From the IMG/VR virus record IMGVR_UViG_2896028454_000001, positions 3,450 through 67,449 of that record: a stretch of DNA of 64,000 nt; one strand, 5' to 3'. Both the position numbers and the translations under genes were made by a program. The notes beneath the pieces were generated by a model. The model did not search any database. It was not told where the DNA came from and saw only the letters and a program-made list of their open reading frames with translations. Below are positions 4,690 through 56,536 of the stretch, piece by piece. Origin of the DNA: a virus. Taxonomy: Duplodnaviria; Heunggongvirae; Uroviricota; Caudoviricetes. Within the stretch, counting starts at the first letter, position 1, and each line of letters starts with the position of its first letter.

Positions 4690-5276
4690 TGCACGACTAC
4701 GAACACGACCGCCGCGCCAAGCTCGCGGACTGGGAGAACACCAAGGCTGCAAACCGGCTCGCCCTCTGGGAGAACACCAAACAGCCCAAGGCGTTCGCCA
4801 AACCCGGCACCCTGCACCCCGACATCGCCGCCTGGTGCGACCGCTTCGCCGCAGGAGAGACCGGCAACCTCATCATCGCCGGGGGCATCGGTGTCGGGAA
4901 GACCTGGAACCTGTGGGCCATCGGCCGGTACCTGATCACCCGCCACCACTGGTTCGGCCGCATGGAAGTCGCGACCGCCTACGACTTCCACGTAGCCACC
5001 GAGGGGTTTAAAGCAGACCGAGACCAGCTCAACGTGTGGTCGTCCGCTCACCTGCTCGGCCTGGACGACGTCGGCGCCCAGACCGTGAACGAGCGGACAA
5101 AGGAGCACTACGCCGGGGTCATCAACACCCTGTCCGAGGACGAGCGACCGATCATCGCCACCACCAACGAGGAGAAGTTGGCCCCGTTCGTCGGCGACCG
5201 TGCCGCGTCCCGGCTCCGTGAAAACGCCACCTTCGTCACCATCACCGGATACGACCGCAGGAAGGCCCGCCAGTGA
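4689..5276 (+). CDS. DnaC/IstB-like AAA+ helicase loader
   Basis: Walker A GGIGVGKT and Walker B LLGLDDVG. Sits between the initiator and the DnaB-like helicase. Confidence 0.75.
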   Translation: MHDYEHDRRAKLADWENTKAANRLALWENTKQPKAFAKPGTLHPDIAAWCDRFAAGETGNLIIAGGIGVGKTWNLWAIGRYLITRHHWFGRMEVATAYDFHVATEGFKADRDQLNVWSSAHLLGLDDVGAQTVNERTKEHYAGVINTLSEDERPIIATTNEEKLAPFVGDRAASRLRENATFVTITGYDRRKARQ

Positions 5277-6607
5277 ACACCCCCACCGAGTTCCCGCACG
5301 ACATCCCCTCGGAGAAGGTCGTGCTGGGCCTGTGCCTGATCTCTAAACGCGCCCTGGAGGACGTGGCTGCCCACGGCCTGCTCCCGGAGGACTTCTACCG
5401 ACCTGCCCACCAGGCCATCTATGAGGCGGCCCGCCACCTGGTGGACATGGGCAAGCCGGTATCGGCGGAGTCGGTGAACGCCGAGCTGGCGCGCCGGGGC
5501 GAGTCGGTGGCGACCGGCGGCATCCTCACCCTGATCGAGTTGACAGAGAACACCCTGTCCCCGGCGACGGCCGTCTACTACGCCAACCTGGTCATCAACC
5601 AGGCCCGGCTACGGCGAGCCCTCCAAGGGGCCATCCGCGCCGCCCAGATCGCATCTGAGGGCCGCGGGGACGTCGATGAGCTGATCGGGATGATCGCCGC
5701 CGAGATGGAAGCGGCGACCGCCCCACGGGCCACCAACGACGACGAGTTCATGGCCCTCGGCGACATCATCCCCAACGTCGTGGACCTGCTGGAGAAACCC
5801 GACGAGGCCACCAACGCCGTCCCCCTGCCCTACGGAGACCTCGACGCCCTCACCGCAGGTCTCGAACCCGGGGAGGTCATGGTGGTGGCTGGCCGCCCCG
5901 GCACGGGTAAGACCACGTTCGCTCAGGACGCTGTCCGCCACGCCGCGATCCGCCACAACATCCCCTCCGTGTTCTTCAGCTTGGAGATGTCCAAGGAGGA
6001 GCTGACGCTGCGGGTCCTATGCGCCGAGTCGCGTGTGCCACTGCACACGATGAAGTCGCGCCTGCTGGACGAACCCGACTGGGAGCGCATCCGCGACGCC
6101 CGCAAACGCATCGCGGACGCCCCGCTGATGATCGACGCGAACCCGTACACCACCACCGCGCATATCCGCGCCCGCCTGCGTGGCATGGCCCGGCCCGCCC
6201 CCGGCAAGCCCGGCCCGGCCCGCCTCGTGGTCGTGGACTACCTCCAGCTGATGAAGCACCCCGGCCGGCCCGAAAACCGGCAGCAGGAAGTCTCCGACAT
6301 CTCGCGCGAGCTGAAGCTGATCGCGAAGGAGTTCGGGGTGGGCATCATCCTCCTGGCTCAGCTCAACCGCGGCCCCGAGCAGCGGCAGGACAAACGGCCG
6401 ATGGTGTCGGACCTGCGTGAGTCCGGCAGTGTGGAGCAGGACAGCGACATGGTCGTCCTGCTGTTCCGGGAGGACGTGTACGACAAGGAGTCGCCCCGGG
6501 CGGGGGAGCAGGACATCATCGTGGGCAAGCATCGGGGCGGCCCCACCGCTGAGGTGACCGTGGCGTTCCAGGGCCACTACTGCTGCGCTGTCGGGTTCGG
6601 TGACTGA
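5273..6607 (+). CDS. dnaB: DnaB-like replicative helicase
   Basis: N-terminal DnaB-type domain, Walker A GRPGTGKTTFAQD, VVVDYLQLM motif, RecA-like C-terminal domain (444 aa). Confidence 0.85.
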   Translation: MNTPTEFPHDIPSEKVVLGLCLISKRALEDVAAHGLLPEDFYRPAHQAIYEAARHLVDMGKPVSAESVNAELARRGESVATGGILTLIELTENTLSPATAVYYANLVINQARLRRALQGAIRAAQIASEGRGDVDELIGMIAAEMEAATAPRATNDDEFMALGDIIPNVVDLLEKPDEATNAVPLPYGDLDALTAGLEPGEVMVVAGRPGTGKTTFAQDAVRHAAIRHNIPSVFFSLEMSKEELTLRVLCAESRVPLHTMKSRLLDEPDWERIRDARKRIADAPLMIDANPYTTTAHIRARLRGMARPAPGKPGPARLVVVDYLQLMKHPGRPENRQQEVSDISRELKLIAKEFGVGIILLAQLNRGPEQRQDKRPMVSDLRESGSVEQDSDMVVLLFREDVYDKESPRAGEQDIIVGKHRGGPTAEVTVAFQGHYCCAVGFGD

Positions 6608-7977: not shown

Positions 7978-8502
7978 GTGGCAGGCGAAACCCAGATCAC
8001 CCTGGTCGGCAACCTGGTGGACGACCCGGAGCTTCGGTTCACCCCGGGCGGTCACGCCGTCGCGAACTTCCGTGTCGCGTCTACCCCCCGCACCTTCGAC
8101 CGGGACAAGGGCGAGTACGTGGACGGCGAGTCCATGTTCCTCACCTGCACCGTCTGGCGGCAGTACGCGGAGAACGTGGCCGAGTCCCTTCAGCGCGGTA
8201 TGCGCGTCGTCGTTCAGGGCCGCTTGAAGCAGCGGAACTACGAGAAGGACGGCCAGAAGCGGACCGTCTTCGAGATCGACGTGGACGAGGTCGGCCCGTC
8301 CCTGCGGTCCGCGACCGCGCAGGTGACGAAGAACCCGCGCGGCAACGGCAACGGGGGCGGCCAGCGCTCCCAGGGCGGCGGCTACGGCCAGCAGTCCGGC
8401 GGGTTCGGCGGTGGCCAGCAGCCCCCGACCCAGGACCCGTGGGCCGGTAACGGCGGCGGTCAGCCCAGCGGCGGTAGCTACTCGGACGAGCCCCCGTTCT
8501 AA
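7978..8502 (+). CDS. ssb: Single-stranded DNA-binding protein
   Basis: OB-fold N-terminus ([19 protein letters not shown]...), Gly/Gln-rich tail ending in the acidic DEPPF. Confidence 0.9.
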
Positions 8503-10491: not shown

Positions 10492-10744
10492 CACCACCGG
10501 ATGCGGCACCCCCGCCGGGGCCACTCGCCACCGCCGACACAAGACCCCCCTGTGCGACCCGTGCAAAATCGCGGAACGCGCCTACCGGGAGGGGTGGCGG
10601 CGCCGTAGCGGCATCAAACCCCGCCCGGTCAAGGCCGCACCCGGCCCCGCGTGCACCTGCGCCCCGTGCTGCTGCGACCACGGCGGCGACTACTGCCGAC
10701 AGGCCGGATGCCCCGCGTGCTGCCCCGCTGGGAGTGAGAGCTGA
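10484..10744 (+). CDS. Small protein with Cys motif (HRRHKTPLCDPCKIAERAYREGWRRR) and Cys-rich tail
   Basis: GTGAGTGA start/stop overlap with the upstream gene. The motif recurs in four other proteins in the window. Confidence 0.45.
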   Translation: MSDTTGCGTPAGATRHRRHKTPLCDPCKIAERAYREGWRRRSGIKPRPVKAAPGPACTCAPCCCDHGGDYCRQAGCPACCPAGSES

Positions 10745-11262
10745 TGCCCGTGGACACCGCCGCTGAGGCCCGCATGGTGGTCGCCGGGCGGGTCGCGGAC
10801 CCCACCACCCAGGAGGTCACCCCCGCAGAGCTGGAAGCCCTCCGCCCCCTCCTTGACGCCCTGGATCTGCTCCCCCGCCCCGAGACCCCGGACGAAGCCG
10901 AAGCCGAATCCGGGCCCGACACCACTAACCCGGTCAAGGAACCGATCGCCAACCCGGCCAAGGAACCGGCCGCCGTCCGGGACGAGTGCGGAACCCGCAA
11001 CGGCTACCAGCAGCATGTCCAGCTCGGCGAAGAAGCGTGTGAGGACTGCAAGGCAGCCAACCGGATCTACGCCTACGCCTGGTACCAGCGCAACAGGGCC
11101 AACCGCCGGGAGTTGGCCCCGTGCGGGACCGAAGCCGCGTACCAGCGGCACCGGCGGCGACGCGAGGAATGCCGGGAGTGCAAGGACGCGAACGCCCGGG
11201 CGGGCAGGGAGAAGCGGGCACGGCAGAGTGCCCGCCGAGCGCGCGACCGCGCCACCGCATGA
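10744..11262 (+). CDS. Protein with two copies of the G.GY..H...C..C..A..Y motif
   Basis: CGTRNGYQQHVQLGEEACEDCKAANRIYAYAWYQRNRANRR and CGTEAAYQRHRRRREECRECKDANARAGREKRARQ. Confidence 0.5.
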   Translation: MPVDTAAEARMVVAGRVADPTTQEVTPAELEALRPLLDALDLLPRPETPDEAEAESGPDTTNPVKEPIANPAKEPAAVRDECGTRNGYQQHVQLGEEACEDCKAANRIYAYAWYQRNRANRRELAPCGTEAAYQRHRRRREECRECKDANARAGREKRARQSARRARDRATA

Positions 11263-11312: not shown

Positions 11313-12107
11313 GTGCGCTTCTACCTCGGAACCCACCAACCCGACTGGCTTCACCACCTCAACCACCGGTGGTTCGAAGCCGACCAGGTCCCCCTGTTCG
11401 TGTCCCACCGCCGCCTCGCCGACCGCCGCACCCTGTTCCCCGCGAACGTCCCGTGGGCCCTCGACAGCGGCGGGTTCACCGAGCTGTCCATGTACGGCCG
11501 GTGGGTAACCACCCCCACGGACTACGCCCACCACGTCCGCCGGTACATGGACGAGATCGGCCGACTGGAGTGGGCCGCCCCGCAGGACTGGATGTGCGAG
11601 CCGGTGATGCTCGCCAAGACCGGCCTCACGGTCGCCCACCACCAGGCGCGCACCCTCGACAACCTGTTGGAGCTGCGCCACCTCGCCCCCGACCTGCCGT
11701 GGGTGCCCGTCCTCCAGGGGTGGGAGCCGGACGACTACCGGCGCCACGCCGACGCCTACCAGTCCGCTGGTGTCGACCTCACCACGGAACCCGTCGTCGG
11801 GTTGGGGTCGGTGTGCCGCCGCCAGTCCACCACCGCCGTGCACAGCCTGGTCGCTGAGCTGGCCGCTGCTGGGCTCCGGTTGCACGGGTTCGGGTTCAAA
11901 ACCCTTGGCCTCCGCAAGGTCGGGCATCTGCTCGCGTCCGCTGACAGCCTCGCTTGGTCGTTGAACGCCCGCCGTCGCCCCGCCATGGCCGAGTGCTTCG
12001 ACGCTCACGAGCACTGCGGGAACTGCCCCCGGTTCGCCACCCGGTGGCGCCGCCAGCTTCTCGACTCCCTCACCCCGCCCCCGGCCCCCTCCGCTTACGC
12101 GGCCTGA
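11313..12107 (+). CDS. tRNA-guanine transglycosylase superfamily protein, DpdA-like
   Basis: DSGGF catalytic-Asp motif (as in the TGT DSGGFQ). VPVLQGW, GLGSVCRR. C-terminal C-x5-H-x-HC-x2-C zinc-site-like motif (CFDAHEHCGNCP). Confidence 0.6.
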   Translation: MRFYLGTHQPDWLHHLNHRWFEADQVPLFVSHRRLADRRTLFPANVPWALDSGGFTELSMYGRWVTTPTDYAHHVRRYMDEIGRLEWAAPQDWMCEPVMLAKTGLTVAHHQARTLDNLLELRHLAPDLPWVPVLQGWEPDDYRRHADAYQSAGVDLTTEPVVGLGSVCRRQSTTAVHSLVAELAAAGLRLHGFGFKTLGLRKVGHLLASADSLAWSLNARRRPAMAECFDAHEHCGNCPRFATRWRRQLLDSLTPPPAPSAYAA

Positions 12108-12123
12108 CCCGAACAGGACCCCC

Positions 12124-12903
12124 ATGGACTCCCTCAGCCTCGCTGACCGCATGAAGACCTACGAGGCCGCCACCCGCCATATCCTCCCCGCCCAGACGTA
12201 CACCGTCGTCCGCGTTGACGGGCGGGCGTTCCACACGTTCCTCCGCCACGCTGACCGGCCGTTCGACGACGCGGTCATGGCCGCCATGGACGCCACCGCC
12301 GTCGCCCTCTGCAAGGACATCAGCGGGGCCCGGTTCGCCTACACCCAGTCGGACGAGGTCAGCGTCATCATGACCGACTTCGGGAACGCTGGCACACAGC
12401 CGTGGTTCGGCGGGGTCGTCCAGAAGATCGCGTCGGTTGCCTCCTCGGTGGCCACCGTGGCGTTCAACGCCGAGTACGGGCACCACTACGACGACGCGAC
12501 CGCCACGTTCGACGCGCGCGTGTTCACGCTCCCCACCGCGGCGGAGGTCGTGAACTACTTCGTGTGGCGGCAGCGCGACGCGGTCCGCAACGCCGTGTCC
12601 ATGGCTGCCCAGGCCGAGTTCTCCCACCGGCAACTCCACGGGGTGAACACCGCCCAGGCCCGCGAACTCCTCCGATCGCGCGGCATCGACTTCGACGCCT
12701 ACCCGGCCGGGGCCCGGTACGGCCGGTTGTGTGCTCGCGCCACCAGCGAACGCACCGTCACCTACACGGACAAGCGCGGGGTTGAGCACACCACCCGGGC
12801 CGTCCGCTCCCACTGGGAGACCATGCCCGCCCCGTCCTTCACCGCCGACCCGGGCGGGGATCTGGCCTCGTCCATCCCCGAGCCCGGCGACCACACCTCC
12901 TGA
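12124..12903 (+). CDS. Thg1-like protein (tRNA-His guanylyltransferase-like 3'-5' nucleotidyltransferase family)
   Basis: VVRVDGRAFH vs Thg1 VVRLDGRNFH. AYTQSDEVSVIM vs AYGQSDEYSFVF. DARVFTLPT...YFVWRQ vs DGRVVVYPS...YLSWRQ. Motifs are collinear with eukaryotic Thg1. Confidence 0.75.
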   Translation: MDSLSLADRMKTYEAATRHILPAQTYTVVRVDGRAFHTFLRHADRPFDDAVMAAMDATAVALCKDISGARFAYTQSDEVSVIMTDFGNAGTQPWFGGVVQKIASVASSVATVAFNAEYGHHYDDATATFDARVFTLPTAAEVVNYFVWRQRDAVRNAVSMAAQAEFSHRQLHGVNTAQARELLRSRGIDFDAYPAGARYGRLCARATSERTVTYTDKRGVEHTTRAVRSHWETMPAPSFTADPGGDLASSIPEPGDHTS

Positions 12904-12916
12904 TCGGAACCCCACG

Positions 12917-13162
12917 TTGGCCGCTTACACCCACCGCACCGTCCACACCATCACCGAGGAATGGGAGGTCCCTGCGGGCCCGTCCGGGGTCCCCATCGGC
13001 GAGTTCAGCCGCGCCCTCACCGCCGCGTCCCGCGTGTACCGGGACACCCACGGCCTAGACCACTACACGGCCTTGCCCGACGACGCCCTGTGGGTAGCCG
13101 GGCGGGAGGACGGGTCTGTGGTGATCAGTTTCCAGGCCCGCACCACGAACACCCTCGACTGA
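12917..13162 (+). CDS. Hypothetical protein (TTG start)
   Basis: Downstream part of track ORF 12731..13162 that does not overlap the Thg1-like gene. Confidence 0.35.
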   Translation: MAAYTHRTVHTITEEWEVPAGPSGVPIGEFSRALTAASRVYRDTHGLDHYTALPDDALWVAGREDGSVVISFQARTTNTLD

Positions 13163-13173
13163 AGGAGGCCCCA

Positions 13174-13485
13174 ATGCCCCACACCCACCCCGTTGACGCG
13201 TTCGGCCACCCCATCCACCCCGGCGACACCATCGTCACCACCGACAAGGGCGCCACCAACACCCCCGGCCTCGTACAGGGAAAGGTCACCCGGTTCACCC
13301 CTTCCGGTGACCTCGTGGAGTTCGAAGTCACCGAGTACGGGGCCGGTGTCTGCTCGACCTGGGGGAGCCCGGTTCGTAAGGCCCAGGTGCGCCGTGTCCA
13401 GGTGATCAAGGCAGCTGCGCAGGCCGCCGAGATCGAACGTGTCCTCGCGGAAGCGGAACAGGCTCTCGCCAGGGGCGTCTCGTGA
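13174..13485 (+). CDS. Hypothetical protein
   Basis: ATG after GGAGGCCCCA. Confidence 0.5.
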   Translation: MPHTHPVDAFGHPIHPGDTIVTTDKGATNTPGLVQGKVTRFTPSGDLVEFEVTEYGAGVCSTWGSPVRKAQVRRVQVIKAAAQAAEIERVLAEAEQALARGVS

Positions 13486-20487: not shown

Positions 20488-20739
20488 GTGAACCTCGCTG
20501 GCCGTACCCGCGCTGACATCGACGCGCTCCTCACCGAACGAGACACCGACATCGCCACCCTCACCCAAGCCGCCGACATCGCCGACACCCGCCGCCTGTT
20601 CGACCTCGCCGACCACTGCCGAAAGTGGGCAGCGAACCCACCCAACCCCGCCGGGGGCACCCCGATCGGGTACCTCCTCGCCCTCACCTACGCGGACCTT
20701 CTCGTCCACGGCCACACCCCCCAGGAGCACACCCCATGA
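20488..20739 (+). CDS. Hypothetical protein (83 aa)
   Basis: GTG start inside track ORF 20431..20739. Confidence 0.4.
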   Translation: MNLAGRTRADIDALLTERDTDIATLTQAADIADTRRLFDLADHCRKWAANPPNPAGGTPIGYLLALTYADLLVHGHTPQEHTP

Positions 20740-21515
20740 CCCTGATGACCGGGTTCGACCTGGAAACCACCGGGAAGGACCCCGAAACCGCGCGCATCGT
20801 CGAGTACGGGTTCGCGCACGTCGGCGGCGGCCAACCTTCCGAGTTCGTGGAGGAACGTGTCAACCCGGGGGTTCCGATCCCAGCCGAGGCCGCCCAGGTC
20901 CACGGCATCACCGACGAGATGGTGGCCGCCGCCATGTCGGCCGAGGCCGCGGTGACCCGCATTGTGCGGACCATCGCTGGGGTGCTCGCTGAGGGCCGGT
21001 TGCTGGTCGGCCACAACATCGTGTACGACCTGACCGTGTTGGACCGGGAGTGCCGCCGCCACCTCGGGGAGGGGTTGGAGTCCCTGTTGGGGGTGCCGGT
21101 CCGCCCGGTGGTGGACACGTTGGTGTTGTCCAAGCACCTGGACCCGTACCGCAAGAGGGTGTCGGACAAGCAGGGTGCTCACCAGTTGCGTACCTGTGTG
21201 GAGAAGATGGTGACCCCCCGGTGGCCGTCTGTGGTGTGGGACGAGGGGGAGGCGCACGGGGCCCTGTACGACTGTCGCATGGCGTTGTATGTGGCCGCGG
21301 CCGTGTTGGCTCTCCCGAAGCTGTCCAACCTGGGCCTGGGGGAGTTGCACGATGCCCAGGTGGGGTGGAAGGCCGCTCAAGCCGCCGGGTTCCAGACCTA
21401 CCTTCGCAACCCGGCGAAAGCGGGGGACAGCTACGACCCGGGCGCGGTAGTGGACGGCAGGTGGCCGGTTGTTCCGGCTGAGCCCCGGCAGGAGGCGTTG
21501 TTGGGGAGGGGGTGA
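20736..21515 (+). CDS. DnaQ-like 3'-5' exonuclease (DEDDh)
   Basis: Exo I FDLETTG. Exo II LVGHNIVYDL. Exo III HGALYD. Confidence 0.75.
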   Translation: MTLMTGFDLETTGKDPETARIVEYGFAHVGGGQPSEFVEERVNPGVPIPAEAAQVHGITDEMVAAAMSAEAAVTRIVRTIAGVLAEGRLLVGHNIVYDLTVLDRECRRHLGEGLESLLGVPVRPVVDTLVLSKHLDPYRKRVSDKQGAHQLRTCVEKMVTPRWPSVVWDEGEAHGALYDCRMALYVAAAVLALPKLSNLGLGELHDAQVGWKAAQAAGFQTYLRNPAKAGDSYDPGAVVDGRWPVVPAEPRQEALLGRG

Positions 21516-21559
21516 GGGGGTGGTGGGGTGTGGGCGGTGTCCCGCACCCCATCACTGTA

Positions 21560-21583
21560 AATTCGTGTAAATTTACAAGAATT
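21560..21583. promoter_or_regulatory. 24-bp palindrome AATTCGTGTAAATTTACAAGAATT (copy 2, one mismatch) upstream of the HAD/RNA-ligase operon
   Basis: About 55 nt are shared with the copy at 7846, including the downstream GGGGGTACCCC palindrome. Confidence 0.5.
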
Positions 21584-21640
21584 CTGGTAGGATGGGGGTA
21601 CCCCCGGAAGGGGCGAAACCCCTGAATCCGAGGAGTCCCC

Positions 21641-22261
21641 GTGCCCCCTTTCCCTCGTGCTGTCTGTCCTGGTTGTGGCGAGGACATCGCGGTCAACCGG
21701 GGCGGGCGTCTCCGCGTTCACGGCCGTCTGCCCTACGACGGGTGCCCCGGGTCCAGCAGGTACGCCCGGCCTCTGCTGTTCCTGGACGTGGACGGGCCCT
21801 TGAACCCGCACTACATGGGCAAGAACAAGTCCCGCCGGTTGGGTTACCAGCGGGACTGGATCAACGGGTTCGACGTCCGTCTGAACCCCTCCCACGGCCC
21901 CGCCCTCCTCGGCCTCCCTGTGGATCTGGTGTGGGGCACCACGTGGGAGCACGACGCGAACAAGCTGATCGGCCCCGTCATCGGGCTGCCCGAACTGCCG
22001 GTGTGCGAGTGGTCGAAGACCGAACCGAAAGGCATCGACCGGCGGGTGTATTACAAAACCCCCGACCTGGTCGATTACGCCGAAGACCGGCACCGGCCGT
22101 GGATCTGGGTGGACGACGAGATCGGCGACGCCGACCGCGAATACGCCGCCGGGGCCGCGACCGTCCCCACCCTCCTCCACCGGGTGGACCCCCGCGAAGG
22201 GCTCACCACCGACGACTTCACCGCGATCACCGCGTGGGTCCACAACCTCAACAACCCCTGA
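21641..22261 (+). CDS. HAD-superfamily phosphatase (polynucleotide 3'-phosphatase-like)
   Basis: Motif I FLDVDGPL. Motif IV WIWVDDEIGD. N-terminal CPGC...C zinc ribbon. Confidence 0.55.
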   Translation: MPPFPRAVCPGCGEDIAVNRGGRLRVHGRLPYDGCPGSSRYARPLLFLDVDGPLNPHYMGKNKSRRLGYQRDWINGFDVRLNPSHGPALLGLPVDLVWGTTWEHDANKLIGPVIGLPELPVCEWSKTEPKGIDRRVYYKTPDLVDYAEDRHRPWIWVDDEIGDADREYAAGAATVPTLLHRVDPREGLTTDDFTAITAWVHNLNNP

Positions 22262-22272
22262 AACGGAACCCC

Positions 22273-23061
22273 ATGACACTCCTCGAAACCCTCAACCGCA
22301 GGCTGCTGAACAGCGCCACCCAGTACCCGAAGATGCCCACCTACCACAAGCTCGAACGCGGCCTGCTCACCGATGACCGCAACACCGTGTTCCCCGCCCA
22401 CCAGCCCGTCATCATCACGGAGAAGGTCAACGGTGCGTCCGCCCGCGTGGTGGTGGACTCCTCCGGGGACCTGTTCATCGGCTCCCGCCATGAACTCCTG
22501 TACGCCCTCGGCGACCGCATCCCGAACCCGGCCGAGAACATCGTCCACACCCTCCGCGACATCGCCCGGGACCTGCCCCGCCCCGGCGACGGGCTGGCCG
22601 TGTACTTCCTGGAGGTGTACGGCAGCGGCATCGGGTCCGCGTGGAAGCAGTACACCGGCCGCAAGGGCGAGTACGGGGCCCGCCTGTTCGACGCCGCGAT
22701 GATCCCCGCCGACGCCCTGGAGGGCACGGCCGAGCAAATCGCCGCATGGCGCGAGCAGGGCGGCCAGAAGTTCGCGACGGAGAAGGAACTGGCCGGAATC
22801 ACCCTGGTGTCGGACATCCCCCTCACCCCGCGCATCGCGACGATCCCTGGGGCCGGAGTGCCCGCGACCATCGCGGAGATGCACCCGTACCTGTGCGTGG
22901 TCGCCGGGGAGACCCGGGTCGCCCTGGACGAGGACGGTTTCGGCAACGCGGAAGGGATCGTGCTCCGCACCCCGGACCGGTCCCACATCGTCAAGGTCCG
23001 GCACAAGGACTACGAGCACACCGCGAAGGCCCGCGCCCGCGCCCGTGCGAAGGCCGCCTGA
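22273..23061 (+). CDS. ATP-dependent RNA ligase-like nucleotidyltransferase (Rnl2-like)
   Basis: Motif I ITEKVNGAS (KxNG lysine nucleotidyltransferase motif). Motif IV-like EGIVLR. Motif V-like IVKVRHKD. Confidence 0.55.
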   Translation: MTLLETLNRRLLNSATQYPKMPTYHKLERGLLTDDRNTVFPAHQPVIITEKVNGASARVVVDSSGDLFIGSRHELLYALGDRIPNPAENIVHTLRDIARDLPRPGDGLAVYFLEVYGSGIGSAWKQYTGRKGEYGARLFDAAMIPADALEGTAEQIAAWREQGGQKFATEKELAGITLVSDIPLTPRIATIPGAGVPATIAEMHPYLCVVAGETRVALDEDGFGNAEGIVLRTPDRSHIVKVRHKDYEHTAKARARARAKAA

Positions 23062-23128: not shown

Positions 23129-24442
23129 GTGATCACCATCAAGGACCTCTTCGCCGGTGGCGGCGGCACCACCACAGGCGCCCGCAAGGTGCCTGGCGTC
23201 AAGGTCAGCATGGCCGTCAACCACTGGCCGCTGGCCGTCGACACCCACAACCTGAACCACCCCGACACCGGCCACGACTGCGTCGACATCTCCCAAGTCG
23301 ACCCCCGCCGGTACCCGACCACGGACATCCTGTGTGCGTCTCCGGAGTGCACGCAGCAGACCAGGGCGCAGGGCGTGGCCCGCACCGCCCGGCAGGCGTT
23401 CGACCTGTTCAGCACCGACGAGATGGACGCCGCTGAACGCTCCCGCGCCACCATGTGGGACGTACTGCGGTTCACGGAGGTGCACGCCTACCGGTACATC
23501 ATCGTGGAGAACGTCATCGACGTCCGAGGCTGGGCGATGTGGCCCGCGTGGGCGCTGGGCCTGGGCTGTCTCGGCTACGAGTTCCGGTACATCAGCCTCA
23601 ACAGCATGTTCGCTGGGGCTTTCGGCGCCCCGGCAGCCCAGTCCCGCAACCGGGGTTACGTCGTCGCGTGGAAGAAGGGCGAGCGCGCCCCGGATTTCAA
23701 CGCGTGGCTGCGCCCCTACGCGGACTGCCCCGTTCACAAGCGTGTGCAGGCCATCCAGGCGTTCAAGAACGGTCGCGAGTACGGCGAGTACGGGCCCCAG
23801 TACATCTGGCGGTGCCCCCGCGTGGAGTGCCGTAACACCCAGGTCCACCCGAAGGTGCGCCCGGCCGCCGACATCATCGACTGGTCCATCCCCACCCCAC
23901 GCATCGGCGACCGCACCACCCCGCTCGTGGAGAACACCATGCGCCGGGTCCGGGACGGGGTCGCCACCTACGGCCGCCCGGCCGAGGACGGCACCCACCT
24001 GCCGCCGTTCATGACCGAACTCCGGGGCGGCGGGTCCAAGCACCGGCCCATGGCGTCCCCGCTGTCCACCGTCACCGCTGGCGGCAACCACCACGCCATC
24101 ACCGTCCCCGACATGATCTACCCGTACTACGGCAACTCGGCTCTCCAGCCCGCCGCCCGGCCGCTGCCCACGGTCACGACGGTGGACACCTGCGCGCTCC
24201 TGCAAGGCGGGGTCATCCGCGACATCAACGACCTGCGGTACCGGATGCTCAAACCGCACGAGTACGCCGCCGCCCAGGAGTTCCCGGCGGACTACCGGTG
24301 GCCGGTTACGTCGAGCAAGAAGCTCGTCCGGATGATCGGGAACGCGGTGTCCACGAACGCGGCCCGTGACCTGGTGGGCATGGTCGCCGCCCAGATGGAC
24401 CCGAGCATCGTTCCGACGTGGGGGATGGGGTTGGCCGCATGA
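23129..24442 (+). CDS. DNA (cytosine-5)-methyltransferase
   Basis: FAGGGG motif I, SPEC (PC motif), IVENV motif VI, target-recognition domain region, C-terminal motifs. Confidence 0.85.
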   Translation: MITIKDLFAGGGGTTTGARKVPGVKVSMAVNHWPLAVDTHNLNHPDTGHDCVDISQVDPRRYPTTDILCASPECTQQTRAQGVARTARQAFDLFSTDEMDAAERSRATMWDVLRFTEVHAYRYIIVENVIDVRGWAMWPAWALGLGCLGYEFRYISLNSMFAGAFGAPAAQSRNRGYVVAWKKGERAPDFNAWLRPYADCPVHKRVQAIQAFKNGREYGEYGPQYIWRCPRVECRNTQVHPKVRPAADIIDWSIPTPRIGDRTTPLVENTMRRVRDGVATYGRPAEDGTHLPPFMTELRGGGSKHRPMASPLSTVTAGGNHHAITVPDMIYPYYGNSALQPAARPLPTVTTVDTCALLQGGVIRDINDLRYRMLKPHEYAAAQEFPADYRWPVTSSKKLVRMIGNAVSTNAARDLVGMVAAQMDPSIVPTWGMGLAA

Positions 24443-24798
24443 GCCGCCGTGTGATTGTGACCGGCGGCCGGGATTACACCGACCAGAACACCGTTGCCCG
24501 GACACTCCAGTCCCTCTACCTCGCGCCGCTCTCCCCGGGCAACCCGCCCACGCTCGTCCACGGAGGCGCGCCCGGGGCTGACCGCCTGGCCGCCAAGTAC
24601 GCCCACGCCCACTACTGGCCAGTCCATGAATTCCCCGCGAACTGGCGGAGACACGGCCCCGCGGCCGGGCCGATCCGTAACCAGCAGATGGCGGATGCCG
24701 GGGCTGACCTGTGCATCGCGTTCCCCGGCGGCCGTGGCACCGCTGACATGGTGTCCCGGGCGAAGGCCGCAGGCATCCCCGTCCGCCTGGTGCCGTGA
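24439..24798 (+). CDS. DUF2493/SLOG-family (YspA-like) protein
   Basis: VIVTGGRDYTD ... LVHGGAPGAD pattern typical of the SLOG-type family in actinophages. Confidence 0.5.
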   Translation: MSRRVIVTGGRDYTDQNTVARTLQSLYLAPLSPGNPPTLVHGGAPGADRLAAKYAHAHYWPVHEFPANWRRHGPAAGPIRNQQMADAGADLCIAFPGGRGTADMVSRAKAAGIPVRLVP

Positions 24799-31634: not shown

Positions 31635-32519
31635 ATGACCGTTCGCCGCACCACCACCATCGTTGCTGCCGTTGCTCTCGCGCTCGGCCTCACCGCGTGC
31701 ACCACCAGCGTCGAACCCGACGAACTCGGCATCGAGTATGACGCCGGTCTGTTCTCCTCCACCACGTTCGACGGGTGCGTGAACTCCGGGACCCGCGTCT
31801 ACTACGGGCCGGGCGACGACGTCGTGAAGTACCCCGGCGGGCAGCGCACGTTCGCGTTCAACAACTCGGAGGACAACCCCGGGGAGATGGGCGCGGAGAC
31901 CGTCGTCACCCAGGACGGCATGGAGATGACCGTGTCCGGGGTCGCGACGTTCCAGCTGAACCCGGACTGTGGCACCCTCCAGCAGTTCCACGAGGCGATC
32001 GGCCGCAAGTACGACGCCCACAAGACGGAGGGGTGGGAGCGGATGCTGAAGGCTTACGTCGGTGAGCCGCTGAGGCGGGCCCTGGACGACGCCTCCACCG
32101 AGTTCGAGTGGCGGGACCTGTACACCTCGGACGAGGCCAAGGCGGAGTGGGAGACCCGTGTTGGGGAGCTGCTGAAGGTCTACGTCGCGGAGATGGGAGG
32201 CGGCGACTTCTTCATCGGCGCCACGTACACCGGCGGGGAGGACGAGGACCCGGGGTCGCCGACCCTCACCCTTCAGCGGCCGGTCCCGCCCGGCAACGTG
32301 CGCGAGGCGATGACGGAGGCGCACCGGATCGCGCAGGAGATCGAGAACACCGAGTCGGCGGCGGAGCTGGCGGAGAAGGAGGCGGAGGCGATCGCTCCGC
32401 TGGTGGATCTGCTCGGCGCGGACGCTTACGTGCTGTGGGAGGCGATCAAGGCTGGTGACGTGGACGTGGTCGCGATCAGCCCGGGTGCGGGTGTGGGTGT
32501 GACCCCGGGGCGGGACTGA
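31635..32519 (+). CDS. Lipoprotein, possibly SPFH/band-7-like
   Basis: Signal peptide with lipobox LALGLTAC. Central region with SPFH-like composition. Confidence 0.45.
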   Translation: MTVRRTTTIVAAVALALGLTACTTSVEPDELGIEYDAGLFSSTTFDGCVNSGTRVYYGPGDDVVKYPGGQRTFAFNNSEDNPGEMGAETVVTQDGMEMTVSGVATFQLNPDCGTLQQFHEAIGRKYDAHKTEGWERMLKAYVGEPLRRALDDASTEFEWRDLYTSDEAKAEWETRVGELLKVYVAEMGGGDFFIGATYTGGEDEDPGSPTLTLQRPVPPGNVREAMTEAHRIAQEIENTESAAELAEKEAEAIAPLVDLLGADAYVLWEAIKAGDVDVVAISPGAGVGVTPGRD

Positions 32520-43198: not shown

Positions 43199-44401
43199 AT
43201 GACCCTCACCCACGAAGACGCCCGTCTCCTCACCGGCCTCGAAGTCGCCACCACCCGCGCCACCCTCACCAACGCGCTCACCACCGTGGCCGTCGCCATC
43301 CACACCCGCCCCGCCGTCCCCATCCTCGCCGGGGTCCACCTGACCGGCGACGCGGACGGCACCCTCACCCTGACCGGGTTCGACTACGACACCGCCGTCA
43401 CCGTCACCCTCCCCGGCGTGGCCACCAACCCCGGCCGGGTTGTCCTCTCCCACGCAGAGCTGGCCGGGCTGCTCGCCGCGACCGCGAAGGGCACACCCGC
43501 GAAGAAGGCCGGGGCCGCGCCCGTGGTCTTGGCCCAGAACGGCAACAAGCCGACCTTGACCGTGGACGGGTACACCCTGCCGGTCGCGGACTACCCCGTG
43601 GACGAGTACCCGACCCTGCCCACGGCGCCCGCGCCCACGCTCACCGTCGACGCGGCCACGTTCGCGGCGGAGGTGGCCCGTGTGGTGCCCGCCGCCGGAG
43701 GGGCCGACGACATCCCCCAGTTGGTGAACGTCCAGTTGGAGACGTACACCAGGGGCGCCTTGTGCCTTACCGCCACCGACCGGTACCGGATCGCTCAGGC
43801 CACCATCCCGGGCACCCGCGCCCCCCGCGCCCCCCGCGCCGACCTCGGCCAGGTCGTGCGCGTCAACGCCGCACTGGTCGGCAAGGTCACCAAGCACCTG
43901 AAGGGGGACACCGTCACCGTTGGGGTGCACGGGGACATGGTCATGCTGGCCAGCGGGCCCGTCACGGTGGTCACCCGCACCAGCGAGGATGAGTTCCCGG
44001 CCGTGGAGAAAGCCATCCCCACCACCATCCCCATGTCGGTGACCGTGGATCACAAGGCGGTGGCCGCCGCGATCACCAAGGCGGGCAACATCCTGGCGGC
44101 GAAGGGTGAACGGGGCCTGTCGGTGGGTATCACCGTCAACCCGGGGTCGGTGGCGGTCGCTCCGGACCTGCCCGGTGTCCTCGCCCCGCAGATCACCGCT
44201 GACACGTCCGATGCGGACGGTGAGGTGTCCGTCTACTTCAACCCGAAGTTCCTCGCGGCGGCGGTGGGAGCGTTCAAGAGTGAGGACACGGTGACGTTCC
44301 ACCTGGACACGCCGACCCGCCCGGTCGTGGTGACCGGCGGTGGGCACACCGTCAAGTCCGCGCCCTACCGCCACCTGGTGCAGCCGATCAGGGTCCACTA
44401 G
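43199..44401 (+). CDS. DNA polymerase III beta sliding clamp-like protein
   Basis: N-terminus LTNALTTVAVAIHTRPAVPILAGVHLTGDADGTLTLTGFDYDTAV matches the DnaN N-terminal domain. 400 aa, consistent with three clamp domains. Confidence 0.7.
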   Translation: MTLTHEDARLLTGLEVATTRATLTNALTTVAVAIHTRPAVPILAGVHLTGDADGTLTLTGFDYDTAVTVTLPGVATNPGRVVLSHAELAGLLAATAKGTPAKKAGAAPVVLAQNGNKPTLTVDGYTLPVADYPVDEYPTLPTAPAPTLTVDAATFAAEVARVVPAAGGADDIPQLVNVQLETYTRGALCLTATDRYRIAQATIPGTRAPRAPRADLGQVVRVNAALVGKVTKHLKGDTVTVGVHGDMVMLASGPVTVVTRTSEDEFPAVEKAIPTTIPMSVTVDHKAVAAAITKAGNILAAKGERGLSVGITVNPGSVAVAPDLPGVLAPQITADTSDADGEVSVYFNPKFLAAAVGAFKSEDTVTFHLDTPTRPVVVTGGGHTVKSAPYRHLVQPIRVH

Positions 44402-48930: not shown

Positions 48931-49021
48931 GGGAGTGCGCCGGAGATGGAGCGCCGGAGCTGGCTGTAACCCAGTGACCCCTTTCGCGGGTTAGGAGGTT
49001 CGAGTCCTCCCACTCCCACCA
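48931..49021 (+). tRNA. tRNA-Tyr (anticodon GTA), class II with long variable arm, encoded CCA
   Basis: Hand-folded. Acceptor GGGAGTG/CACTCCC. D-arm CCGG/CCGG with GG. Anticodon stem GCTGG/CCAGT. Loop CT-GTA-AC. T-arm GGAGG-TTCGAGT-CCTCC. About 91 nt. Coordinates +/- 1. Confidence 0.6.
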
Positions 49022-49042
49022 CCCCGCCCACACGCGGGGCCT

Positions 49043-49118
49043 ATGCGGGTAGCTCAACTGGTAGAGCAGCCGCCTCCAAAGCGGCCGGTTGCGGGTTCGA
49101 ACCCTGCCCCGTATGCCA
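49043..49118 (+). tRNA. tRNA-Trp (anticodon CCA), encoded CCA
   Basis: Hand-folded. Acceptor ATGCGGG/CCCGTAT (one G-U pair). D-arm GCTC-AACTGGTA-GAGC. Anticodon stem GCCGC/GCGGC. Loop CT-CCA-AA. T-arm GCGGG-TTCGAAC-CCTGC. 76 nt. Confidence 0.75.
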
Positions 49119-51089: not shown

Positions 51090-51377
51090 ATGCGCCCCGC
51101 CGACATCGACCACCGGTACAAGTACCACCCCTCCAACACCCCCGACGCCATCACCGCCCACGAGACCGTCCGAGGCGGCGCCCTCAGCCTCGCCCACCTC
51201 ATCAACACCCACGTCCCGGACGGCCCGGACAAGGACCTGTCCCTGAACGCCCTGGACGACGTCCTGTTCCGCGCGAACGCCGGGATCGCCCGAGGAGGGG
51301 GCCGTTCGCATAGCGGCCCGTGCCGGTGCAACCCCCGCCTGCGCACCAAGACCCTGGACGAGGCCACCGATGGCTGA
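51090..51377 (+). CDS. Hypothetical protein (95 aa)
   Basis: ORF. Confidence 0.45.
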   Translation: MRPADIDHRYKYHPSNTPDAITAHETVRGGALSLAHLINTHVPDGPDKDLSLNALDDVLFRANAGIARGGGRSHSGPCRCNPRLRTKTLDEATDG

Positions 51378-56005: not shown

Positions 56006-56536
56006 GTGCGCCACCCCTGCCCCACCCCCGGGTGCCCCCACACCACCCCCACCCGAACCACCCGGTGCGACCACTGCACCCGACGCACAGGACGAGCACA
56101 CCGCATCACCCTCGTCTGCGGGCCACCCTGCGCCGGGAAGAACACCTACGTCACCCAGCACGCCCAACCCGGCGACCTGGTCGTAGACCTCGACGCCCTC
56201 TACCGCGCGATCAACGCCAACCCCACCCGGGCCGACCACGACCAACCCGCCAGCCTCACCCCCTTCGCCCTCGACGCCCGCGACACCATCCTCCACCGGC
56301 TACTCCACGGCGACCACAACCTCCGCGCCGCCTGGATCATCCACTCCGCACCCAACCCAGCGACGCGAGCCGAATGGAAAGCTCGCGGCGCAAAAGTCGT
56401 GATGATCAACGCGAGCCTGGACACGCTCACCCACAGGGCACACCGGCAGCGCCCCACCGCATGGGTTGATCACATCCACGACTGGCACCGCCGCTACCAG
56501 CCCGGCCACGTCGACCAGACAGTCACCACCGGGTAA
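56006..56536 (+). CDS. P-loop NTPase, polynucleotide-kinase-like (AAA_33-type) with N-terminal zinc ribbon
   Basis: Walker A LVCGPPCAGKNTYV followed by DLVVDLD. N-terminal CPTPGCPH...CDHC. Confidence 0.5.
   Translation: MRHPCPTPGCPHTTPTRTTRCDHCTRRTGRAHRITLVCGPPCAGKNTYVTQHAQPGDLVVDLDALYRAINANPTRADHDQPASLTPFALDARDTILHRLLHGDHNLRAAWIIHSAPNPATRAEWKARGAKVVMINASLDTLTHRAHRQRPTAWVDHIHDWHRRYQPGHVDQTVTTG

Follow-up and report, generated by a model that had tools for sequence, protein, structure and literature searches.

Adjacent DpdA and Thg1-like genes in a Nocardiopsis prophage are probably independent accessory genes of two known kinds

DpdA enzymes of the TGT superfamily include two validated transglycosylases that insert preQ0 into DNA, Salmonella DpdA (PDB 7UI4) and gp2 of Mycobacterium phage Rosebush, a phage whose DNA carries dPreQ0. 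Mycobacterium phage Orion has been placed in the largest, “DpdA-only” group; no 7-deazaguanine was found in its DNA, and its host was noted to lack the preQ0 pathway (Hutinet et al. 2019, PMC6884629). YhhQ is described as the preQ0 importer (PMC6884629). As for Thg1-like proteins (TLPs), the characterized bacterial ones are not dedicated tRNA-His enzymes but repair 5'-truncated tRNAs of many kinds, for which the acceptor stem provides the template with its 3' strand (PMC3701042). The TLP of Bacillus thuringiensis (BtTLP, PDB 4KGK; Rao 2011, Hyde 2013) is a biochemically characterized tRNA 5'-end repair enzyme, for which 3'-5' addition has been demonstrated (PMC3701042). Thg1-like genes were noted in phages in 2010 (PMC2904730), and a paper from 2021 counted them among the RNA-repair tools of jumbo phages (PMC7824862). 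RlaP, a nucleotidyltransferase, adds one to two nucleotides at damaged RNA 3' ends and helps restore tRNA function (PMC12776372).

Here, we analyze a stretch of phage DNA in which a DpdA gene is immediately followed by a TLP gene. We found no paper on a DpdA-Thg1 pair, in agreement with a prior sequence-only reading of this DNA, which had called a phage Thg1-like protein paired with a TGT-family enzyme an undescribed arrangement. This claim of novelty does not extend to Thg1-like proteins of phages as such, which form PHROG 4717, were reported in the 2010 and 2021 papers, and are encoded, as found by tblastn, in 162 deposited phage genomes, including those of Bacillus, Caulobacter, jumbo, Mycobacterium and Rhodococcus phages. 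DpdA and TLP are known kinds of phage gene, and each of the two proteins adds a member to an established family. The explanation that we consider likely is that they are two independent accessory genes, which happen to be neighbors in an extended mosaic string of co-directional early genes.

The window, by which we mean the whole 64,000-nucleotide stretch that was analyzed, has a base composition of ~70% G+C and carries nearly every gene on the + strand. It encodes a DnaB helicase, an SSB, a DnaQ-like exonuclease, a C5 DNA methylase and a DnaN clamp, as well as two tRNAs and terminase, portal, protease and capsid genes. Nocardiopsis sp. FR26 has proteins with 100% identity to both DpdA and the Thg1-like protein, the window corresponding to ~121.6-185.6 kb on contig VWVX01000002.1. 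Since host metabolic genes are found ~5-9 kb out on the left of the window and further tail genes on its right, these sequences belong to a large temperate prophage. This Nocardiopsis sp. FR26 prophage is siphovirus-like, and DpdA and TLP are located in its early, non-structural region. The features discussed below are as follows.

10744..11262, + strand: small WhiB-like regulator (PHROG 12112, E 9e-15), directly upstream of DpdA
11313..12107, + strand: DpdA, an Orion-type “orphan” base-exchange enzyme of the TGT superfamily, 264 aa (Pfam, PHROG)
12124..12903, + strand: bacterial-type TLP, a predicted templated 3'-5' nucleotidyltransferase, 259 aa (Pfam, PHROG, profile)
12917..13485, + strand: pair of short conserved genes for proteins of 81 aa and 103 aa (the latter DUF7205-like), the homologs of which mark a syntenic slot downstream of DpdA and/or TLP
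21641..23061, + strand: candidate RNA end-healing and sealing pair, a HAD phosphatase (“Swiss Army Knife” type) and an RNA ligase (Pfam)
48931..49118, + strand: tRNA-Tyr(GTA) and tRNA-Trp(CCA) (ARAGORN; tRNA-Trp backed by Rfam, 62 bits)

The WhiB-like regulator is part of the same co-directional gene string as DpdA, and no match to it was found next to DpdA or TLP in either the TLP or the DpdA locus set.

Profile searches confirm the assignment of the first protein to DpdA, which had been proposed from its motifs. The protein matches the Pfam DpdA family PF23859 with an E of 3.2e-85 and 286 bits (cut-off 27), covering 247 of the 291 model positions, and PHROG 1279 with an E of 4e-92, while NCBIfam returned no match for it and none for the Thg1-like protein. 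DpdA falls within the TGT-type TIM-barrel fold, its nearest solved structure being a DNA-acting DpdA and not a tRNA TGT; its DSGGF stretch gives only a weak local hhalign match (E 0.11) to the DSGGFQ of E. coli Tgt. The gene starts with a GTG codon preceded by GGAGAGGAGG, a strong ribosome-binding site, and GC3 is 0.92-0.93 in both the DpdA and TLP ORFs, versus an overall GC of ~0.70. The expected motifs are readily found, WALDSGGFTE, with D51 in its ALDSGGF part, and CFDAHEHCGNC at the C terminus. Across 31 homologs, D51-S52-G53, D211-S212, H232 and C238 are invariant, as are C95 and C168, while C235 is nearly so. The DSGGF motif cited in the sequence-only reading as catalytic is therefore present with an invariant Asp. 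The second catalytic Asp would be D211, within SADSLAWS, a role that we infer from conservation alone. The C-terminal Cys/His cluster, which had been likened to a zinc site, fares less evenly: it is present and contains the invariant H232 and C238, but its first Cys, C226, is not conserved among the 31 homologs.

DpdA would be a TGT-fold enzyme swapping guanine in nucleic acid, by analogy phage DNA, for a 7-deazaguanine base. Since no 7-deazaguanine is present in Orion DNA (PMC6884629), DNA as the target of an Orion-type DpdA is an extrapolation. No means of providing the base was found in the window or its flanks. Pfam scans of the larger ORFs in the window identified no QueC, QueD, QueE or FolE, as had been stated earlier for these 64 kb, and precomputed Pfam matches on every called gene from ~5 kb left to ~10 kb right of the window revealed no preQ0 gene either. 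Likewise, tblastn searches with QueC, QueD, QueE and FolE of Mycobacterium phage Rosebush gave no match even at E <= 1, either in the window or in the loci that flank it. No YhhQ-type importer was detected in the window and ~15 kb of flanks, whether by Pfam or by tblastn with a YhhQ-like query. Since neither a preQ0 pathway nor a YhhQ-type importer was detected in the window and these flanks, DpdA would probably act only if the base is supplied by the host or the medium, and would otherwise be idle.

The relatives of this DpdA are informative in this respect. Among 80 IMG/VR loci of the clade, a YhhQ-like Vut_1 transporter is encoded directly upstream of DpdA in 13-18, which makes it the commonest DpdA neighbor, and QueC is found close to DpdA in three. 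This linkage points to 7-deazaguanine salvage by the clade. If the clade depends on salvaged bases, the absence of modification in laboratory-grown Orion would be explained. The same evidence bears on the possibility that DpdA does not insert 7-deazaguanine into DNA in this phage and, in a host without preQ0, is inert cargo, uses another base, acts on RNA, or interferes with a TGT- or QueC-like host defense. Such a role would fit with the lack of a synthesis gene or transporter in ~80 kb, with the unmodified DNA of Orion (PMC6884629), the DpdA of which is 52% identical, and with the presence of the same clade in a Streptomonospora element (L257) that carries FtsK/SpoIIIE, Prim-Pol and integrase genes and resembles an integrative and conjugative element more than a phage. 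However, the aspartates of the DSGG and ADS motifs and the His/Cys cluster are kept in >7,000 homologs, mainly from actinobacteria and soil metagenomes, which argues for selection for catalysis, and the transporter and QueC linkages argue for salvage. We therefore regard a different or absent activity as unlikely, and favor a base-exchange enzyme that depends on salvage. The question extends well beyond this prophage, since the Orion-type “DpdA-only” clade, with its putative activity, numbers >7,000 homologs, which come from phages and prophages of actinobacteria and from at least one integrative element, and we found no later paper settling what this group does.

The second protein was readily confirmed as a member of the Thg1 family. 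It matches Pfam Thg1 PF04446 with an E of 1.9e-28 and 99.4 bits (cut-off 29.2) over model positions 2-130 of 130, and PHROG 4717 (“tRNA-His guanylyltransferase”) with an E of 2e-71, and it contains the three motifs on which its original assignment was based, VVRVDGRAFH, AYTQSDEVSV and FVWRQ. The metal-binding residues D32, D77 and E78 do not vary among 31 homologs, and they align with the RVDG and QSDE motifs of 4KGK. When a profile of these 31 homologs was compared with solved structures, the match to the B. thuringiensis TLP 4KGK had an E of 1e-70 over ~210 residues, versus 1e-18 to 3e-23 for eukaryotic Thg1 structures. HINNLYN is the defining motif of eukaryotic-type Thg1, and where Candida Thg1 carries it our protein reads VRNAVSM. 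Since its best profile match is 4KGK and this stretch differs from HINNLYN, the protein is a bacterial-type TLP. The alignment with 4KGK extends to residue 212, and the Thg1 C-terminal domain PF14413 scores 14.2 bits in TLP (cut-off 26.3), with a precomputed match in many close homologs. TLP belongs to a clade of high-GC actinophages and prophages, with 55-79% identity to homologs from Nocardiopsis, Nonomuraea, Actinomadura and IMG/VR. This clade has at least 564 matches in IMG/VR, and the context was phage-like in all three TLP genomic contexts that were inspected.

A true tRNA-His guanylyltransferase, adding G-1 to tRNA-His during infection, is what the database annotation “tRNA(His) guanylyltransferase” and the Pfam Thg1 match would suggest, but several observations make this very improbable. 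The best match by far is to the repair-type 4KGK, and the defining eukaryotic motif is replaced by VRNAVSM. Moreover, no tRNA-His gene was found in the window by ARAGORN or in 54 related loci, and in bacteria G-1 of tRNA-His is usually genome-encoded. A phage tRNA-His link was accordingly discarded, tRNA genes being found near TLP in 8 of the 54 loci and tRNA-His in none. The tRNA-Tyr and tRNA-Trp of this phage have properly paired acceptor stems.

The gene contexts instead favor a TLP involved in the repair of tRNA 5' ends. When 77 non-redundant high-GC TLP loci were compared with the 80 DpdA loci within a 6-kb radius, genes for RlaP, TROVE, HAD-SAK-like or RNA-ligase proteins were found near TLP in 11 of 77 and near DpdA in 0 of 80 (Fisher p = 0.0003). 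There is no single conserved TLP neighbor, since the largest family obtained by clustering the 399 neighboring ORFs of the 77 loci occurs in six of them. In this phage, the RNA-repair genes are 9-12 kb from TLP and are not adjacent to it. The RNA ligase matches PF09414 RNA_ligase with an E of 8e-9 and 36 bits (cut-off 27), the HAD phosphatase matches PF18143 HAD_SAK_2 with an E of 1e-5 and 26.0 bits, slightly under the 27.5-bit cut-off, and an RlaP nucleotidyltransferase (E 1e-19) is encoded just left of the window; neither the RNA ligase nor RlaP has a sequence-level PDB match. The HAD phosphatase and RNA ligase, 9 kb downstream, are likely functional partners of TLP. An AAA_33 P-loop protein (56006-56536) was considered as a polynucleotide kinase, but PHROGs place it with terminase small-subunit ATPases and it was not counted as RNA repair.

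A mechanism can be proposed on this basis, in which the substrates of both enzymes and the counter-defense role are ones that we infer. On a tRNA that has lost nucleotides at its 5' end, TLP would use ATP or GTP to activate the 5' phosphate and would then restore the lost residues by 3'-5' addition, templated by the opposite (3') strand of the acceptor stem. It would most likely do so as part of a dispersed RNA-repair kit directed against host nucleases aimed at tRNA, whose other members would be the RlaP 3'-end nucleotidyltransferase, the HAD phosphatase and RNA ligase (21.6-23.1 kb) and the two tRNA genes. Against such a role, no nuclease by which the host would trim tRNAs at their 5' ends is known for Nocardiopsis. 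The tendency of TLP genes, which are common in high-GC actinophages, to occur near RlaP, Ro/TROVE and RNA-ligase genes supports the long-standing hypothesis that phage TLPs would repair tRNA 5' ends in conflict with the host. Such repair by this TLP is a reasonable idea that gene context supports, and it would require no contribution from DpdA.

Are DpdA and TLP nonetheless a pair? The DpdA stop codon and the TLP start are separated by 16 nt on the same strand, and a promoter/terminator scan of 8-15 kb identified none between or around the two genes. Given this short gap and the lack of a predicted terminator, DpdA and TLP are probably co-transcribed. How often the two genes are found together was examined in 169 TLP loci, drawn from genomes, metagenomes and viral contigs; for 140 of these loci, the sequence extends 1 kb or more upstream. 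Only three of the 169 have a DpdA gene at a distance of up to 6 kb. The first (L002) is a syntenic Nocardiopsis relative in which the spacing is also 16 nt. The second (L006) is a decayed Spirillospora prophage, where a DpdA with a frameshift is followed by two small ORFs and then by a truncated TLP, both genes lying within ~1 kb, and in the third (L111) the two genes are 5 kb apart. Conversely, TLP is present within 6 kb of DpdA in none of the 80 IMG/VR loci of this DpdA clade. Both genes occur on two IMG/VR contigs, 8.5-11 kb apart and on opposite strands. Adjacency is thus restricted to one small lineage, represented by L002 and by the decayed copy in L006. In Streptomyces phage Gilgamesh, which has the closest deposited phage DpdA (55%), the 264-aa gene that follows DpdA is unrelated to TLP.

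The two small genes downstream of TLP allow a direct comparison of equivalent positions. In L002, the slot contains DpdA and TLP, then the 81-aa gene and then the DUF7205-like gene. In L003, a TLP that is 76% identical is followed by the same 81-aa/DUF7205-like genes and there is no DpdA, while in L256 a DpdA that is 81% identical is directly followed by these genes and there is no TLP. Since one slot holds both genes in L002, only TLP in L003 and only DpdA in L256, the two have been gained or lost independently. Their family memberships, folds, conserved catalytic residues and gene contexts, like this independent presence and absence, are direct observations.

These findings make it highly improbable that DpdA and TLP work together on tRNA as a functional pair, for example by base exchange and 5'-end rebuilding, or that they make up a joint and unusual nucleic-acid modification pathway. 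The 16-nt, same-strand spacing kept in L002, the decayed co-occurrence in L006 and the 5-kb co-occurrence in L111 are all compatible with a pair, as is the still putative action of the Orion-type DpdA clade on DNA. A functional link specific to this lineage would have proximity as its sole support. Against it are the presence of each gene alone in the same syntenic slot, the counts of 0/80 and 3/169, the different recurrent neighbors of DpdA and TLP, and a nearest solved structure that acts on DNA and not on tRNA. It is more improbable still that an Orion-type DpdA has been recruited to an adjacent TLP for RNA work, for example base exchange coupled to 3'-5' rebuilding of the acceptor end, although if true the many actinophage enzymes of the “DpdA-only” group would acquire a function directed at RNA.

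The reading as two independent accessory genes is therefore retained, their adjacency being rare and apparently incidental. As a pair they are of little importance, since the arrangement looks like ordinary phage mosaicism. The interpretation offered in the sequence-only reading is, overall, mostly not supported: its family calls and the lack of preQ0 genes were right, and of its proposal of a tRNA 5'-end repair or editing pair, repair by TLP fits the RNA-repair gene context, but the presence/absence pattern and the locus counts argue against the partnership with DpdA.

How do the two proteins compare with known systems? The closest to DpdA is Orion gp20, with which it shares 52% full-length identity, a size of ~260 aa, the same conserved motifs, an actinobacterial host and a lack of preQ0 genes in the phage. 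In contrast to Orion gp20, our DpdA comes from a Nocardiopsis host and is encoded among the early genes of a prophage, and unlike many members of its clade it has no adjoining YhhQ-like transporter. With the validated Rosebush gp2, it is barely alignable. TLP has in common with BtTLP the RVDG and QSDE metal-binding motifs, but it is encoded by a phage/prophage, has an Arg at the position of the activation-site Lys43 (HADRPFD versus CAKPFD, as read from the alignment), and possesses an additional conserved C-terminal tail of ~40 residues. Its identity to the phage TLPs of PHROG 4717, from Bacillus herelleviruses, jumbo phages and Mycobacterium/Rhodococcus phages of 110-135 kb, is 29-43%, and it is set apart from these proteins by its place in the high-GC actinophage and prophage clade.

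In addition to DpdA and the Thg1-like protein (TLP), the prophage encodes a member of a known RNA-repair family, whose gene lies beyond the window edge in L171, the locus that extends left of the window. RlaP genes were also found near TLP in 5 of the 77 other loci (non-redundant, high-GC). Within the window, a run of three genes may constitute a module for RNA end healing and sealing, the HAD_SAK_2 match of its phosphatase falling slightly below the Pfam cut-off. Furthermore, genes encoding TROVE-domain (Ro60-like) proteins are present a few kilobases from TLP in three actinophage-like loci (L036, L120 and L147), which hints at a link between TLP and RNA quality control.

L171 8989-9693: RlaP-family (PF10127) RNA-repair nucleotidyltransferase, roughly 0.4-1.1 kb to the left of the window start
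Window 20736-23061: DnaQ-like 3'-5' exonuclease, HAD_SAK_2-like phosphatase and PF09414 RNA ligase
L147 8730-10403, minus strand: TROVE-domain gene, as an example

As for tRNAs, ARAGORN predicts a tRNA-Tyr(GTA) of 91 nt with a long variable arm (window 48931-49021), which scores below the Rfam tRNA gathering score, while the adjoining tRNA-Trp scores above it.

As for the supply of the modified base, 13-18 of the 80 IMG/VR loci of the Orion-type DpdA clade (L176-L255) encode, immediately 5' of DpdA, a membrane protein of about 171 residues (e.g., L230 823-1338) matching Pfam Vut_1, the YhhQ family of preQ0 importers. The presence of this gene beside DpdA suggests that "DpdA-only" actinophages salvage the base. 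In the window's phage, no Vut_1/YhhQ-like gene was found across the window and about 15 kb of flanks.

The window also encodes replication and other proteins. A sliding clamp, DnaB and SSB are among them; no DNA polymerase was seen within the window. The 95-residue protein matches a family made up of phage sponges for the signaling nucleotides of CBASS and Thoeris, and homologs of the YAcAr gene are present in six TLP loci and four DpdA loci.

Window 5273-6607: DnaB
Window 7978-8502: SSB
Window 23129-24798: C5 cytosine DNA methylase, then a small YAcAr (PF10686) domain protein
Window 31635-32519: SPFH/Band 7 domain protein, in the prophage early region
Window 43199-44401: DnaN-like sliding clamp with three beta-clamp domains
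Window 51090-51377: 95-residue protein, precomputed Pfam match to Acb2_Tad1_hairpin

A degenerate version of the DpdA/Thg1-like neighborhood is found in Spirillospora sp. NPDC048911 (L006 4398-6528), where DpdA is broken in two by a frameshift and followed by two small ORFs and then by a Thg1-like ORF whose match is limited to its first 77 residues. DpdA is also encoded on the chromosome of Streptomonospora nanhaiensis (L257), with 67% identity to the window protein. The genes there run WhiB, DpdA, Prim-Pol, a 600-residue protein, HTH_17 and integrase (L257 7708-13441), and an FtsK/SpoIIIE gene lies upstream of them. The locus resembles an integrative conjugative element of actinomycetes, not a phage.
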